NCBI GenBank assembly: GCA_951406725.2
Contig: OX597826.1
Location: forward strand, 46,810,001-46,874,000
DNA length: 64,000 nucleotides
Source: Octopus vulgaris
Taxonomy: Eukaryota
Reading direction: 5' to 3'
Positions within the stretch are counted from its first letter, which is position 1; each line of letters starts with the position of its first letter. This document shows positions 2,069 to 62,544 of this stretch, in pieces. The notes under the pieces are model-generated. The model did not search any database and was not told the origin of the DNA. It was given only the letters and a program-made list of their open reading frames with translations. The position numbers and the translations under genes are program-made.

Positions 2069-2724
2069 TAATGTAAGATATATTACAGAGGGACTGATTG
2101 CCCACTTGCACACAGTAGACCGTTAGGCACGGCAGCTTGTTTGTTCGCTTCGTTACAATCCAAAATATGTTAACTGAAGAACTGTTTGGAAGACGGTCGC
2201 CGAAAATTATTTGTATATATATTGTATTTTAGAAATTACAAGACGGATGAGAAACAGAATTCAAAATAATTTACAGATTTATCTCTGAGATATTAATTAG
2301 GAATACAATTATATAATAATATGTGAATTTGACATTTAGCGATCAGGACTTTTAACAATTTTATAGTGAGAGATAAATTTTATCGCAAAAAAATAAATAA
2401 ATAAATGTTAACAATTATTTCAATAGTAAGACGAAAATTATGAAAAAATACTGAAAATGCGAGGAAGCTAAACAAAATACATGCATAATATAGAAAGTGT
2501 TTATTTGTATTAAGTTAAGAGCAATATAAACATAAACTGAATAAAACTTAGAAAATTCTCTCTGACACACACACACACATAATGTCATACATACACACAC
2601 ACCCAAGGATACACTAAAAAAAATGAGCAAAACTTATTCTTTGAAGGAAAAATTTTTTTTTTAATAGTTTGCAACTATGTATGTATGTATGTATGTATGT
2701 ATGTATGTATATATACACACACAT

Positions 2725-2763
<39 letters not shown>

Positions 2764-2789
2764 CATATATATATGTAAATATATATATG

Positions 2790-2868
<79 letters not shown>

Positions 2869-3424
2869 ATGTATATATATATACATATATATATATACAC
2901 ATATATATGTATATATACATATGAATATTATGGATGCACACATACAAACACATTTATACATTATATAGTATGATGTTTATATACACATATTTTGACCGGT
3001 TGCTTCATTTGGCTTATTTTTGACTCCAATCAAATAAAAACTATATATTTTAATATAAAAAAATGAAAATGCAAAATTACTCTAGTTGCGCGCATGCGTA
3101 AAGCCATTTGCTTCTTCTCCCCTCTTTCTGTTGTTCACTGTTATTTTCATTTCGATACATTCCAATGTTTGTGAGATTCGGTTTATTTATTTATTTAGTT
3201 ATTTATCAATTATTTATTTATTTATTTATCTATTTATTTATTGTTATATTTTATTGTGTTCTTTTATTGTATTTTATTCATGTACATGCATATATACACA
3301 CACACACACGCACATATATACATACACACACACATATATATATACACATATATTTACACATATATATACACACACACATATATATATATATATACACACA
3401 AACACATATATATATATATACACA

Positions 3425-3460
<36 letters not shown>

Positions 3461-3461
3461 C

Positions 3462-3500
<39 letters not shown>

Positions 3501-4307
3501 GCATAGATAAATAGGTAGATATGAATGTGCATTACTCGTTTTGATATAGCTCTAGAAATTATATGACTTCTTCACGGTGTAAATATTTTGTTTACTGCCA
3601 GCCAATGAAAATGATATTGGAGGTTGTGATACTGTCGTCTGCTTTGAAGTTTTGAAGAAAGAATTCAATTTCTCCGGGGCAATGTCGCGAGACGGGCAAT
3701 TATATACTCATAGTCTCTCACACACACAGACACGTACACACACACACACCTACACGCACACGAACACGTGAATAGGTATTTGTTGGTGAATGTATATTTA
3801 TGCACATATGAGCTTGCGCGTTCATCTTTGTTTATCTGTGACTGTATTCACAACGGACGTGTTCATAACGTACACACACACGTATACACACACACACACT
3901 CACATATACATACAAACAAACATACACACAAACACACATATAAATATAGATAGATAGCTAAATGATAGATGAGTAGAGATAGACAGACAGGTAGATAGAT
4001 AAATAGATACATATATATATATACTAATATAGACGTAAACGTGTATATATATATATGAAGTTAAATAATAAGGGTAGAAATTGATATTAATCAATTAAAA
4101 CCTGTGGCTTAGCATATTTTTAAAAATCCGAAGATTAAAAATTGTGATACATACAAAATTTAGAGGACTTACCATTAAAGTAGATAGCCTATAGGCTAAA
4201 CATAGACGTCAAATCGCCATTACCACGAAGAATGTGTTCTCAAGAAAAATCTCAGCAAAAAACCAAAATATTAAAATAAGCAAGATAAATGAAAATATAC
4301 GGAATAA

Positions 4308-4363
<56 letters not shown>

Positions 4364-4475
4364 ATCACGTGACCGACCAGGCTATCAGATGTTGCTACAC
4401 ATCGCTGGTCATAATGCGCTTCGCATTGTTTTAGCCTTCGAATGACGCCACCCCGCTGGCTAAGCGAGAAGGCCA

Positions 4476-4517
<42 letters not shown>

Positions 4518-4534
4518 AATGTATACATACATAT

Positions 4535-4609
<75 letters not shown>

Positions 4610-5314
4610 CATATATATATACATATATATATACCAATATGAATATATACACATAAAATATGATTATGTATACATGTGCAAGAGCAGGACGTTGGAGTTG
4701 TCTTCTGTGTACGTAATTGTGTTGCAATCCTGTCTCTTTTCTGTCTACAAATAGAATTTAGTGTTACTAGACTTAAGGTAATACGTTGAGATATGCTCGC
4801 ACAAAATTTCATACTCGTAATAAAGACAGAAGTGACTATCACATATGACTTTACTACTGCAGATATTCCTTATAAGGAAGAGAATAAAGAACGGAATTAC
4901 GAGCAAGTTTCCGAAGCAAAGCATCGTCCAGTTGTTAGATGTTGATAGTCGAAGGCAGACAAGAGTGACCTATCTATCTGTCTGTCTGTCTGTCAGCTTT
5001 TTTCTGTGTGTATGTATATATACATAAAACAGACACAAGACAAGCACAGTAATGTGTGTGTATGTGTATGTGCGTGCATCTGCGCGCATCTGTATATATA
5101 TATATATATATATATGCAGAAAATATCGATAAGCAAAAGTGGGCCTAAGACGTGTATTCAAATGGAAAGTTGCAAAAACAAATAAATGCATGGATGATGT
5201 AAAGAAGTTTTATCTTTACAGCTGTTTCGGGTTCTTAATGACTGGTGTCATAACCCTGTGTAGTATGTAATATATATGTATATATATATATAAATATATA
5301 TACTCTTACTCTCT

Positions 5315-5347
<33 letters not shown>

Positions 5348-5355
5348 TGAGGCAC

Positions 5356-5417
<62 letters not shown>

Positions 5418-5810
5418 GTGTGTGTGAGTGTATGCATATGCGTGTACCAGTGCATGTGTGTGTGGGTGTGTGTGTGTGTGTGTATGTATGTGTGTAAATT
5501 ATTTTAGAAATAGACCTCATTCCTTTTGTCTTTTTCTTCTTTTTCTTCTTTACCGCTACTGCAACCGTTGCTAGTTGATAACTTCGTGTTCGTTTTACAC
5601 AGATTTCCCCTTCCTTTGCTTTTACGCATGTTCTAGTCTTACTGCTGTTACTTTGTAGTAGTTCTCTATTTAAACGTACTTATGTCTAACATTTGCTGTG
5701 GTGTTCAGCAAATCCAGAGAATCGAAAGTGACGAACGTAGAGCATATCTGGTGAAAGAGTTTCAACGAGGAAATATCAACAGAATCTATCAGATATTGAT
5801 AAATATTATT

Positions 5811-6410
5811 AAGGCGGCGATCTGGCAGAAACGTTAGCACTCCGGGCGAAATGCTTAGCGGTATTTCGTCTGCCGCTACGTTCTGAGTTCAAGTTCCACC
5901 GAGGTCGACTTTGCCTTTCATCCTTCCGGGGTCTATTAAATAAGTAGCAGTTACGCACTGGGGTCGATATAATCGACTTAATCCGTTTGTCTGTCTTTGT
6001 TTGTCCTCTCTGTGTTTAGCCCCTTGTGGGTCGTAAAGAAATAGGTATTTCGTCTGCCGATAAGTTCTCAGTTCAAATTCCGCCGAGATCGATTTTGCCT
6101 TTCATCCTTTTTGAGTCTACGAAATAAATACCATTTACACACTGGGGTCGTTGTAATCAACACAACCCCTTCCCCAAATATGAGGCCTTGTGCTTCCAGT
6201 AGAAAGAATTATAAATGTGGTAAGCAAGCAGAATCGTTAGCGTGCCGGGAAAACTGCTGAGTGGCTTTTCATCCGTCTTGACGTTCTGAGCTCAAATTCC
6301 GCCGAAGTCGACTTTGCTTTTCATCATTTGAGGGTCGATGTAGTCGAATAGCCATCTTCCTGCAAAATTTCAGGCCTTGTGCCCATAGTAAAAAGAGTGA
6401 GTAATAATCA
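5811..6410 (+). mobile_element. Cluster of family A SINEs (dimeric copy plus a further diverged copy)
   Basis: Head aaggcggcgatctggcag at 5811; body restarts at about 6044; third head at about 6215. Confidence 0.8.
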
Positions 6411-17645: not shown

Positions 17646-17920
17646 GCATCTACAATCAGTTCTGGACTGCTTCTTTTCTCTTATCTACTAACGAAAGGGT
17701 CAAAGGCCGTGCTGACCAGTATTTGCGATGAGAGCACCAACATCGGAACGATTACCGCAAAGCAGTTATTTCAGTGCTCCAAAGACGATTCCGTTTCGAT
17801 GTCTTTACACATATCGTTCATCGTTTACTTGTTTCACTTATTGGACTGCGGCCATACTGGGGCAAAGCCACAAAAGTTTAGTCGAACAAATCGATTCCAG
17901 TGCAATTTTTTTTAAGCCTA

Positions 17921-18008
17921 TAGGCGTAAGTGTAGCTGTGTGGTAAGAAGGTTGCTTCACAACCACATAATCTTAGTGGATTTGATAGACGGAAACTGAA
18001 AAGCCCCG

Positions 18009-18063
<55 letters not shown>

Positions 18064-18600
18064 ATAGAGGGCATTTATTACACATAAATGCCTCACACTA
18101 AGAGGGACATAAGTCATTACTACCAACATTACACTAATCATACCTAATGCAGTTCTTCAAAGCAAGACATTTAAAAAATGAATTTAGTTCTGTATCACCC
18201 GTGATTTCACATTTAACGTATAAAATTACGTCTATGATCATCAGCAGAACTGATTCTGAACACATCATAAATAAACGACCAACTTTATCTGGCGAAGACG
18301 AACAGATATCTATTCACTCCGGCGAAGCACATGGAAATGTTTATAAATCATATATTCGGTAAATGTATATATATATACATGCATATATTTATGTGTCTGT
18401 GTTTGTCCCCCACCATCACTTGTTAACCGATATTGGTATGTTGGTGTGTTCGCGTCCCCGTAAACTAGCGGTTCGGCAAAAGAGATTTATTACAAAGAAT
18501 AAGTCCTGGGGTCGGTTTCTTCGACTAAAACCCTTTAAGGCGATGCTCCAGCATGGCAACAATCAAATGACTGAAACAAGTAAAAGGGTAAAAGAAAAAA
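17921..18600 (+). mobile_element. tRNA-derived SINE, family B (CORE-like domain), split by an insertion in its internal (TA)n
   Basis: Head taggcgtaagtgtagctgtgtggtaag; tail gactgaaacaagtaaaag; other copies at about 18600-18957(-), 19890-20250(-), 27660-27899(-), 39070-39465(+), 48155-48540(-), 53000-53163(-), 55613-56070(+) and 59470-59670(-). Confidence 0.8.
18186..18251 (-). ncRNA. Type I hammerhead ribozyme motif, canonical core
   Basis: agttctg-CTGATGA-stem II (cat/atg plus gacgta/tacgtt)-GAA-ATCAC gg GTGAT-A-cagaact; 7-bp stem I; AUA cleavage triplet. Confidence 0.75.
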
Positions 18601-18735
18601 GGAATAAGCCGGGTACTTACTCTATCACTCGCTCTTTGGCCGAACCGCTAGGTATAGAGTCTTGAACAAACCAACACCGGCTGTCAGGCGGTGATGGATA
18701 ACAAACAAAACGTCAAACACACGCGCACACACACG

Positions 18736-18792
<57 letters not shown>

Positions 18793-19510
18793 ATACAATC
18801 ACACACACATACATATATACGAGGGATTTTTTCAGTTCCCCGTCCACACATGACTTGGGGCTATAACAGAAAATGCTTGCCGAAGGTGCCACGCAGAAAG
18901 AGAGAGTGAAACCGAAACCACGCGGTTGTAAAGCAAACTTCTTACCACACAGCCTCCTTGGACTCTCAAGGCCAGACGGTACCCTGGTAGCGTCGTTGTG
19001 ACGTTCGATCTCTTCTTCTCCTGAAAAAAGAGTGACAAAGGGACCAAAGAATTTACTCCAATTCTGAACCGGTACATCCTATCTATCTACTTCGAAAGGA
19101 TTAAAGGCAAAGTTGACCTTGGTGGAATTCGAACTCACAGCACATGAAATAAGAATGAACACTGCAAATTTGTATTCCTTTGTATTCTGATCCGCGAACT
19201 ACTCTACCAGTTTGATGTCTGTTTATACATAAATATGGAGGAATAAAATAAATGTAGATGTAAATGGAACTTTATACAGAATAATAAAAAAAGAAATAAC
19301 CTACTTTTGATATGTAAGTGTACAAATACCTGTTTGCTCTCTTAGTGATATCAACGTCATCGTCATCGCCGTCGTCGTTGTTTAAAATCTGTCTTCCATG
19401 TTGGCATGGGTTGGAATATATATATATACAAATGCAGCGTGGAAGGTGTTTATAAGCCATTTGAAAACAAACAAAACGCCGTTAGATTCACTTGACATTT
19501 AAATTTAATT

Positions 19511-38185: not shown

Positions 38186-39461
38186 CACACCTGTTCGCAG
38201 TGTATGCACAACAGTAAAATACTGGTTTAAGATTTTGACACAAGGCCAGCAGGTTTGAGTAAGGAGCTTGTACTTGTTTTATCAACTCCGAAAGGATGAA
38301 AGGCAAAGGTGACCTTGGCGGAATTTGAACTCAGATCCTAAAGACAGACGTCAAAAGTAGAATATTAAATTCTTTGTACACTGTGTTCGCACACGCGCGC
38401 GCATGTGTGCATGGAGTGATGATATAAAATGTGTATGGAGTATATACATGTAAATTGTTATATGGGACAGCGTGCGTGGTAGTGTTCGATATCATATATT
38501 TATATATATATATATATAATGTGAGTGTGTGTAGTATTTTTTATATGTCTGTATAGATAAATAGGTACCTGGATAGATATCGTTGCAAATATACGAGGGA
38601 ATGTCATTAAATATACGATTTATAGTTGTAAAAGTCATATCCTGCGACGATGTAAACTTCCAAGGCGTAAACTTCTTTACAATAGTGATCCATAAATGGC
38701 TGCTATCAAAGCGATTTTGTTTTGTGCAACTCTGTGACTATTCTTTTCAAACTTTGCTAAATCCATTCCACTTGTGAATAATTACGCAGAGAGAACAATA
38801 ACAACTAATTTGTATATTATTTACTATTTCATCAACAAACAGTATGTTTAAGAGAACCACCAAGTCACAGACTCGTTCGGGGTTGCCATCGGTAGAGGAT
38901 ATGATCGTCCTCATAACTTTTGTCGAAACTGTAAGTTAAAAGACACTTTCTTAAGCTGTCACGCAGTAGGACTCAACCCGCAACCACGTTGGGCAAGGGC
39001 CTTCTCTCTTTCTCCTTTCTCTCTCTACCTATATATCTATCAATCAATTTATCTATCTGTGTGTATATGTGTGGCTGTGTTGCAAGAAGTTTGCTTCCAA
39101 ACCACATAGTCCCGGGTTCAATCCCACTGCGTGGCACCTTGGGTAAGTCTCTTGTATTTTGGCCTCGGGTTGACCAAAACACTTGTGAGCAAATCTGGTT
39201 GACGGAAACTGAAAAAAGTCACTCGTACATATGTTTGTGTGTGTCTGTCTTTGAGTTTATGTTTGTCCCCCACCACCGTTTGAAAACCGGTGTTAGTGTC
39301 TTTATGTCCCTGTAACCAAGCGGCGAGGCAAAAGAAAACGATAGAATACATACCAGGCTTTAAAAAATTAAAGTACTGGGGTTGATTCATTCATCTAATA
39401 TTCCTTCAAAGCGGTGACACCGCATGGCTGCAGTCTAATGACTGAATCAAGAAGAAGATAA

Positions 39462-39593
<132 letters not shown>

Positions 39594-61626: not shown

Positions 61627-62045
61627 CCTATTTCTTTATTGCCCACAAGGGGCTAAACACAGAGGGGGCAAACAAAGACAGACAAAGGGATCAAGTCGAT
61701 TACATCGACCCCAGTGCGTAACTGGTACTTATTTAATTGACCCCGAAAGGATGAAAGGCAAAGTCGACCTCGACGGAATTTGAACTCAGAACGTAGCGTC
61801 AGACGAAATACCTATTTCTTTATTACCCACAAGGGGCTAAACATAGAGGGGACAAACAAGGACAGACATAGGTATTAAGTCGATTACATCGACCCCAGTG
61901 CGTAACTGGTACTTAATTTATCGACCCCGAAATGATGAAAGGCAAAGTCGACCTAGGCGGAATTTGAACTCAGAACGTAGCGGCAGACGAAATACCGCTA
62001 AGCATTTTGCCCGGCGCGCTAACGTTTCTGTCAGCTCGCCGCCTT
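61627..62045 (-). mobile_element. Dimeric family A SINE
   Basis: Two near-identical bodies (about 61627-61810 and 61811-62045) sharing one head. Confidence 0.85.
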
Positions 62046-62544
62046 TAACATACTATTTTCCACTTCATTATACACACGTGGCTATATACGAATCATATCC
62101 AGGTAACAGTATATCAGTTATATCCAGGTGACAATAGATGAATTTCTAAATTACAAGTACTCCTTAAACAGTAATCATATCTTTCCACTGAGTTCAAATC
62201 CCATCCGCAGCAAGGTCGAGGACGTCGAACTAACAGGGCCGATGGTGCATCAGAAAAATTGCTTTGCGACACTTTTTTCCTTTTTTCTTGCTCTTTACGA
62301 TCTGAGCTCGTAACTCGTTAAAGCCAGTTCTGCATTTCATCCTTTCAGAGTAGATAAAATAAAATACCAGTCAAGAACGTGGCTTGGTATAATCGGCAAA
62401 GCCCCCCACCCCCACCCCACTTCAAAATTGCTGGTATTGTGCCTAAATTACAGACCATTATTTTGGAATTCGGTCTCAGTTAAAATTCTAAAATTATAAC
62501 AGTTTCAAATTTAGGTAGAAAAAGGAGAATTTAAATGTATAATA

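Follow-up and report, generated by a model that had tools for sequence, protein, structure and literature searches.

An insertion carrying a hammerhead motif lies inside a SINE in the window, that is, the whole stretch of 64,000 nucleotides of Octopus vulgaris DNA (contig OX597826.1, positions 46,810,001 to 46,874,000) analysed here. The question it raises is what this insertion is, how it came to be there and whether its RNA may cut itself. The original prediction had described an intact-looking unit of about 300 bp at 18062..18360, which split the SINE at its TA tract and was the best candidate in the window for a monomer-active ribozyme. In our study the insertion is identified, with a high degree of confidence, as a truncated solo copy of an ORF-less hammerhead repeat, likely TPRT-inserted by a PLE enzyme; the repeat is likely a non-LTR retrozyme or non-autonomous PLE, and the ribozyme is predicted to be a weak one as a single motif. 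The features of the locus are collected in Table 1.

Table 1. Features of the hammerhead insertion and its host SINE (window positions; a dot in the strand column means no strand)
Feature	Position	Strand	Basis or remark
Host SINE, 5' half	17919..18010	+	Collinear BLAST to intact SINE copies in the window
(TA)25 tract, a microsatellite within the SINE that abuts the 3' end of the element	18011..18060	.	Sequence; family-wide TA-joined 3' ends
Hammerhead element, 5'-truncated copy of a non-autonomous monomer of about 480 bp	18056..18365	-	Genome copies, flanks
Hairpin at the 3' terminus, directly before the short fixed 3' end	18070..18092	-	Candidate RT start signal
Type I hammerhead including extended stem I	18180..18256	-	Fold, covariation; core motif 18186-18251
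Predicted cleavage site, 3' of AUA	18192..18193	-	Hammerhead consensus
Stem III: in the monomer 4 bp and CGGG loop, in the dimer a 10-bp duplex with 2x2 loop	18194..18205	-	
Stem II: U10.1.U11.1 mismatch followed by 3 bp, an internal loop and an extension of 5-6 bp	18209..18237	-	
Catalytic core CUGAUGA (C3-A9)	18238..18244	-	Sequence; CUGANGA in all 27 alignment rows, which had been selected on that motif
Remaining TA-rich SINE tract, at the 5' truncation junction	18366..18391	.	Sequence
Host SINE, 3' half	18392..18590	+	Collinear BLAST

The insertion and its host SINE

A single SINE was found to be split at its internal TA run, as had been claimed, because the intact SINE copies of the window at 20270-19900 (minus) and 39050-39470 (plus) align collinearly by BLAST to both flanks of the insertion (17919-18026 and 18368-18586). 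The orientation of the element is opposite to that of the SINE, whose 5' half carries an internal deletion near 17970-17979 relative to the other copies. Box-like words (A and B boxes) were seen by eye in the intact copies, and we take the host repeat to be a tRNA-derived SINE. More SINE fragments flank it on both sides (17824-17900, 18632-18676 and 18924-18953). Elsewhere in the window, an inverted-orientation repeat pair of 368 nt, 87% alike, is present at 5804-6171 and 61685-62052.

The element does lie where it had been placed, and its limits are corrected to about 18056-18365, with the 3' end ambiguous over 18056-18061 (ATATA microhomology). No target-site duplication is readable at the element, both junctions lying within TA repeats. 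The expectation of an insertion younger than the SINE was borne out: the copy differs by 1.0-1.4% from its nearest relatives and has 2 private substitutions, whereas the host SINE is 65-88% identical to the other SINE copies in the window (BLAST), and on this divergence the insertion is judged to be much younger than its host.

The monomer family and its insertion anatomy

The piece of about 300 bp is not a unit in itself. The flanks of the genomic copies reveal a longer monomer, of which 18056-18365 is a 5'-truncated part comprising monomer positions 316-488 followed by 1 to about 136, around 310 nt in all. From one cut site to the next the monomer measures 488 nt in locus L002 and 460-488 nt elsewhere. 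It has a GC content of 32% and is ORF-less (the longest open frame in the doubled monomer is 74 codons), and its circular form has a better fold than 25 shuffled versions (z -4.8). The genome search, with 40 of 1287 candidates scored, gave at least 40 near-full-length copies including the element itself, at 92-100% identity, and the family has hundreds of genomic relatives; the other genomic copies to which the original prediction had looked are thus many. Contigs assembled from presumed RNA runs also cover the family; ends, strand and joints are not visible in them.

Insertion anatomy was counted over 60 loci picked for likeness to the 18056-18365 copy or its hammerhead pattern, which represent 47 distinct sites and 73 3' ends (one divergent related-family hit in L022 was omitted). 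The 3' ends fall, in 72 of 73 cases, at two fixed positions, monomer 126-151 (n=36) or 240-280 (n=36), lying about 130-150 and 240-280 nt beyond the cut site. The 5' ends are scattered (random 5' truncation), and inversions are found at 26 of the 47 distinct sites. TA-rich sequence stands directly after 56 of the 73 3' ends, compared with 5.4% of window positions. The proposed TA targeting is therefore upheld, as a property of the whole family; the target is the TA run, and the nesting in a SINE is incidental. Some copies (L137, L139 and L091) terminate on (CT)n adjoining (TA)n instead of pure (TA)n, in register with the CCCTCT at which the element itself ends.

Five same-strand hammerhead pairs spaced 460-488 bp apart occur among the 47 sites, three hammerheads stand in a row on C16, and the array at L171 consists of three full monomers and a 270-nt end. 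The partial tandems seen in the family reach about 3.5 units, and the 18056-18365 locus holds a solo truncated copy. Older divergent families (L130, L132, L133 and L205-L233) have the stem III sequence and the TA-joined ends in common with the monomer and no BLAST similarity to it; one of them has a 419-bp unit.

The hairpin reported near 18069-18091 is present, one position further on. Its perfect 9-bp form is private to this copy, arising from a 1-nt insertion that none of the other 29 aligned copies has, and among 233 loci the sole matches to the perfect sequence were the window's own. The family-wide form is bulged, and the hairpin is conserved with some substitutions in the sister families. 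Since it is adjacent to the short 3' end and conserved in this way, the hairpin is a candidate RT start signal, a role suggested by the anole PLE work (PMC11167929).

Hammerhead fold and covariation

The minus-strand motif could be read in the sequence as it had been described: CUGAUGA, GAAA (18208-18205) and an AUA triplet (18195-18193), a 7-bp stem I (AGUUCUG 18251-18245 with CAGAACU 18192-18186) and an extended stem II with a U-U at its base. Stem I resumes after a 1x2 loop with four more pairs (GAAU 18256-18253 / AUUC 18183-18180). Stem II opens with the U18237.U18209 mismatch, and its extension pairs 18232/18231-18227 with 18220-18216/18215. Stem III is made of A15.1-U16.1 and three Watson-Crick pairs closed by a CGGG loop; of the 4-5 bp suggested for it, four stand in the single motif and a fifth does not, because the fifth C-G pair would need a 2-nt loop. 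The predicted position of the cut, 3' of AUA, follows from the established hammerhead consensus.

The type I features, namely the core CUGANGA / GAAA / NUH with helix I open, are all present. The G10.1-C11.1 pair is absent from the copy, which has U.U instead. The description of the element as intact-looking is not supported. The Rfam hammerhead models gave no match to the copy at the gathering threshold or at E up to 10, and they also miss the sister motifs with G-C. A family covariance model (built with this copy included) and a relaxed motif scan both identified a single site in the window.

In an alignment of 27 hand-picked representatives, 95.6% of the cells are paired. The covariation score was 0.481 against 0.185 for shuffled alignments, with 0 of 500 shuffles as high in a test that is inflated by the relatedness of the sequences, and slid controls gave 0.03-0.08. 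Both-sided changes were observed in every one of the 4 stem I pairs and in all but one of the 4 stem II pairs. Stem III is near-invariant and hence uninformative on covariation, and many rows had been selected on its sequence.

States of the stem II basal pair

The family pattern has 136 exact matches in the genome compared with 0 for the reversed control, and 70 of the 136 carry U.U, the commonest state of the subfamily. Among 62 distinct motifs in the fetched loci, U.U was found in 40, A-U in 17, G.U in 2, A.C in 2 and U-A in 1. The U.U is a subfamily state and not private damage; repairing it to the subfamily consensus changes nothing, because it is the commonest state. A pattern with stem III fixed returned at least 183 further motifs (control 0) that share this stem and retain G10.1-C11.1 while differing considerably in stem II. 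On a midpoint-rooted tree G-C is found on both sides and 2 changes are needed; the tree is compatible with an ancestral G-C at 10.1/11.1, which is likely, and does not fix the order of changes.

The youngest U.U subfamily (L066, L078, L090, L171 and L172) shows 0-0.5% difference between loci. Its stem II extension has lost 10 nt and its stem III loop one base, and the longest arrays seen are its own.

The strongest alternative to our reading, possible though not the one favoured, is that the hammerhead has become catalytically dispensable in this lineage, the fold being kept for protein binding or folding while the stem II pair decays. The five states at 10.1/11.1 and the loss of the stem II extension in the youngest U.U subfamily would fit such a decay. 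Moreover, ribozyme mutants had no effect on the insertion of the anole PLE in vitro in the assays described in PMC11167929, and the most active PLE of the octopus genome has, by eye, a non-canonical core. Against it, the core, GAAA and NUH are retained, stems I and II covary across families that are about 75% identical, and many identical copies are present in the G-C subfamilies too.

Predicted cleavage as a single motif and as a dimer

Folding energies take no account of tertiary contacts and make the three-way junction unfavourable for all members of the family (P at most 0.013), so that their ranking alone is informative; in this ranking (ViennaRNA) the hammerhead fold of the copy lies 6.25 kcal/mol above the ensemble, against 2.7-4.5 for most intact relatives (A-U, A.C, G.U and G-C). 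The gap is 6.25 kcal/mol for U.U, 3.11 for A-U and 2.77 for G-C. The larger gap of the copy is explained by U10.1, which lengthens a misfold between the core and stem III and adds about 3 kcal/mol to it. Several damaged or divergent G-C copies score 5-9. The idea of this core-stem III lock as a selected off-switch was not supported, since the natural stem III falls in the top 4-49% of 256 alternatives.

Stem III is also suited to pairing between two motifs. Its strand alone forms no stable hairpin (0 kcal/mol), and its self-duplex is predicted at -9.7 to -16 kcal/mol and is perfect in one subfamily. The C15.5-G16.5 pair is kept in 60 of 62 distinct motifs although it would close a loop of 1-2 nt. 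With a single motif at the locus there is no cis partner for a dimer. Of nine predicted retrozyme dimers in a recent test, eight showed no cleavage according to the data given in bioRxiv 10.64898/2026.07.22.740005.

The 18056-18365 copy probably cuts only weakly as a monomer: some self-cleavage of its RNA in vitro is given slightly better than an even chance, and efficient cleavage is unlikely. The latter is equally the weight that we give to the view of the copy as an efficient monomer-active ribozyme in which the longer stem III and the extended stems I and II offset the U.U. The intact core, the 7+4 bp of stem I and the 4-bp stem III agree with this view, and the U.U copies were amplifying until recently (0-0.5% apart). 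The invertebrate retrozyme hammerheads treated in PMC7229834 cleave efficiently as single motifs, with a stem III of 2 bp and a tetraloop in the monomer-active ones, which is shorter than the stem III here; further, AUA is a natural triplet (PMC1636495). On the other hand, the lost G10.1-C11.1 pair is highly conserved among hammerheads (PMC4209133), U10.1 strengthens the misfold as above, AUA is the slowest of the four triplets compared in ELVd (PMC1636495), and the U.U precedent, axolotl HHR_Amex2, is weak as a monomer, with 22% cleavage in 1 h and much better cleavage as a dimer (PMC7229834). The motif is the lone one of its kind in the window. At the scale of the genome the claim of a best monomer-active candidate is not supported, since at least 183 sisters keep the canonical G10.1-C11.1 and fold better, and this solo copy is not a good one by which to represent monomer activity.

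Template and proposed mobilising enzyme

A set of 30 segments was chosen by their 3' part; 27 of them extend upstream through the cut site and none begins at it, which indicates that the copies come from uncleaved precursors or re-ligated circles. A possible excess of 5' ends at the cut site was discarded: 7 of 29 TA-joined ends lie within the ATA microhomology (p=0.08; tallied by eye among the first 100 of 132 rows), and microhomology explains them. Private variants within arrays, which bear on a circular versus a linear template, were shared in 3 cases and unshared in 31 over 29 tandem pairs.

It is the architecture of the insertions that points to mobilisation by a PLE. The marks of these elements are partial tandems, inverted truncated copies, a two-ended tail and a (TA)n bias, the last known for Neptune and Naiad (PMC8557442). 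In the anole PLE (Poseidon PAc) cDNA synthesis begins internally in the RNA, on AT-rich DNA, at two sites of a stem-loop that follows the hammerhead (PMC11167929). At least two young PLE families with RT and GIY-YIG occur in the octopus genome. The first has a protein of 781 aa (150 scored of 6136 candidates); the second has 150 scored copies at 99-100% identity (of 22324 candidates) and also ends at two fixed sites on (TA)n. The pLTRs of both families gave no significant similarity to the monomer among the same scored candidates (150 of 6136 and 150 of 22324). No PLE ORF (RT/GIY-YIG) was found joined to the monomer in the loci examined, which cover PLE, sister and divergent families, nor between the two hammerheads 3.5 kb apart on C8. 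PLE fragments near L021, L024, L061, L063, L079, L133, L134, L139 and L227 were considered as partners and are read as separate insertions or relics, by inspection at L061, L063, L134 and L227 and from coordinates at the others.

The 781-aa family is an abundant two-ORF PLE with an RT+GIY-YIG frame and a CxxxxCxxC linker (L049; in L121 the ORF is at 2245-4590 and the pLTR at 5217-5690), and is presumably Neptune-like. By eye, it has a minimal hammerhead near the 3' end of the pLTR with a U3-A8 core variant, UUGAUAA ... GAAA CAUG U. The second family (L134:6116-8108; L141-L170) has a hammerhead-like core CCGAWGA with an extra U before GAAA in 29 of 30 loci, and the ribozyme of this highly active element is possibly a variant or an inactive one. 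Several unrelated hammerhead-like families are present in the genome; type I hammerhead-like motifs unrelated to the monomer lie in L122 near 5735 (minus), L038 near 40, L100 near 85 and L115 near 890, with stem II of 4 bp or longer and a self-complementary stem III.

The multi-copy family, the ORF-less monomer, the tandems, the inversions, the two 3' ends on (TA)n, the 5' truncation and the conserved fold are direct observations, and we propose the following course of events. Multimeric loci would be transcribed, and a PLE RT/GIY-YIG protein would bind the conserved structured 3' region of the RNA and nick (TA)n. The cDNA would start within the RNA at one of the two sites, as in the anole PLE in vitro, and run back through the cut site on an uncleaved precursor or a re-ligated circle. 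Synthesis would halt early, here after about 310 nt. In tandem transcripts, cleavage would be most efficient in a double hammerhead formed by way of the near-palindromic stem III; it would release monomers of about 480 nt, which may circularise. The solo U.U copy is probably dead-on-arrival for mobility.

A bolder version, rather doubtful at present, would have self-cleaved and re-ligated circles of about 480 nt reverse-transcribed from two internal starts into (TA)n by a PLE protein that recognises the structure of the RNA and not a pLTR sequence, with the stem III dimer switch letting subfamilies shed G10.1-C11.1 and stay mobile. If true, retrozyme circles would be tied mechanistically to PLE enzymes, and the natural allelic series (G-C, A.C, A-U, G.U and U.U) would ask whether retrotransposition needs hammerhead cleavage.

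A further alternative, the solo pseudo-LTR (pLTR) of an autonomous PLE that lost its ORF through 5' truncation, has little probability. PLE hammerheads do sit in pLTRs (PMC4209133), and most PLE insertions are described as 5'-truncated with one terminal repeat left (bioRxiv 10.64898/2026.07.22.740005). In the loci examined for our family, copies longer than one unit continue into another monomer and never into an ORF, and the frame of 74 codons speaks against it as well. A chance hammerhead-like string in AT-rich repeat DNA, to which the missing Rfam match and a single-strand MFE different from the hammerhead fold might lend colour, is implausible by the slid control and the pair types, and it is refuted by the covariation in stems I and II together with the 0 matches of the reversed and control patterns.

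Comparison with known systems

Taken singly, this copy is an ordinary one; greater value lies in its family. Monomers that lack an ORF, were active until recently and bear clear marks of PLE insertion occur in a single genome together with five natural states of a conserved ribozyme pair. The rate of cleavage could thus be set against copy number and age, and the natural stem II series could test whether cleavage matters for mobility. The family bears on the role of the hammerhead in PLEs; Naiads thrive without canonical hammerheads (PMC8557442). No description of the family was found in the text of the cephalopod and octopus papers searched on hammerheads, Penelope and repeats, and the passages of PMC13282606 on octopus repeats do not mention hammerheads.

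The family would act as non-LTR retrozymes do, its insertions resemble those of PLEs, and it probably belongs to a known class of animal elements. A class of non-LTR retrozymes or non-autonomous PLEs, with solo monomers included, is proposed in bioRxiv 10.64898/2026.07.22.740005. The PLE origin of retrozymes rests there mainly on co-occurrence and pLTR homology, mostly in vertebrates. In the octopus, an invertebrate, it is the anatomy of the insertions that speaks for it, without homology to the pLTR of any known partner.

The octopus family shares with the non-LTR retrozymes of PMC7229834 a type I hammerhead, one per non-coding low-GC monomer, and tandem as well as solo copies; a mussel (mollusc) example described there has extended non-canonical loops. 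It differs in its monomer of 460-488 bp against the described 150-450, and in its short arrays (up to about 3.5 units), often inverted, with fixed 3' ends on (TA)n. With axolotl HHR_Amex2 / Rtz353 (PMC7229834) the U.U copies have in common the U.U at the base of helix II together with a more stable helix III and, by prediction here, weak cleavage alone and better cleavage as a dimer. They differ from it in a helix III with one additional pair and in the internal loop and extension of helix II. The partial tandems, the inverted 5'-truncated copies and the self-complementary helix III are like those of the PLE pseudo-LTR hammerheads (PMC4209133, PMC8557442), as are the two alternative 3' ends downstream of the hammerhead and the AT-rich or (TA)n targets (PMC11167929, PMC8557442). 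The differences from PLEs are the lack of an ORF, a helix III which is not minimal, and two ends about 130 nt apart here in comparison to a tail of 30-40 nt.
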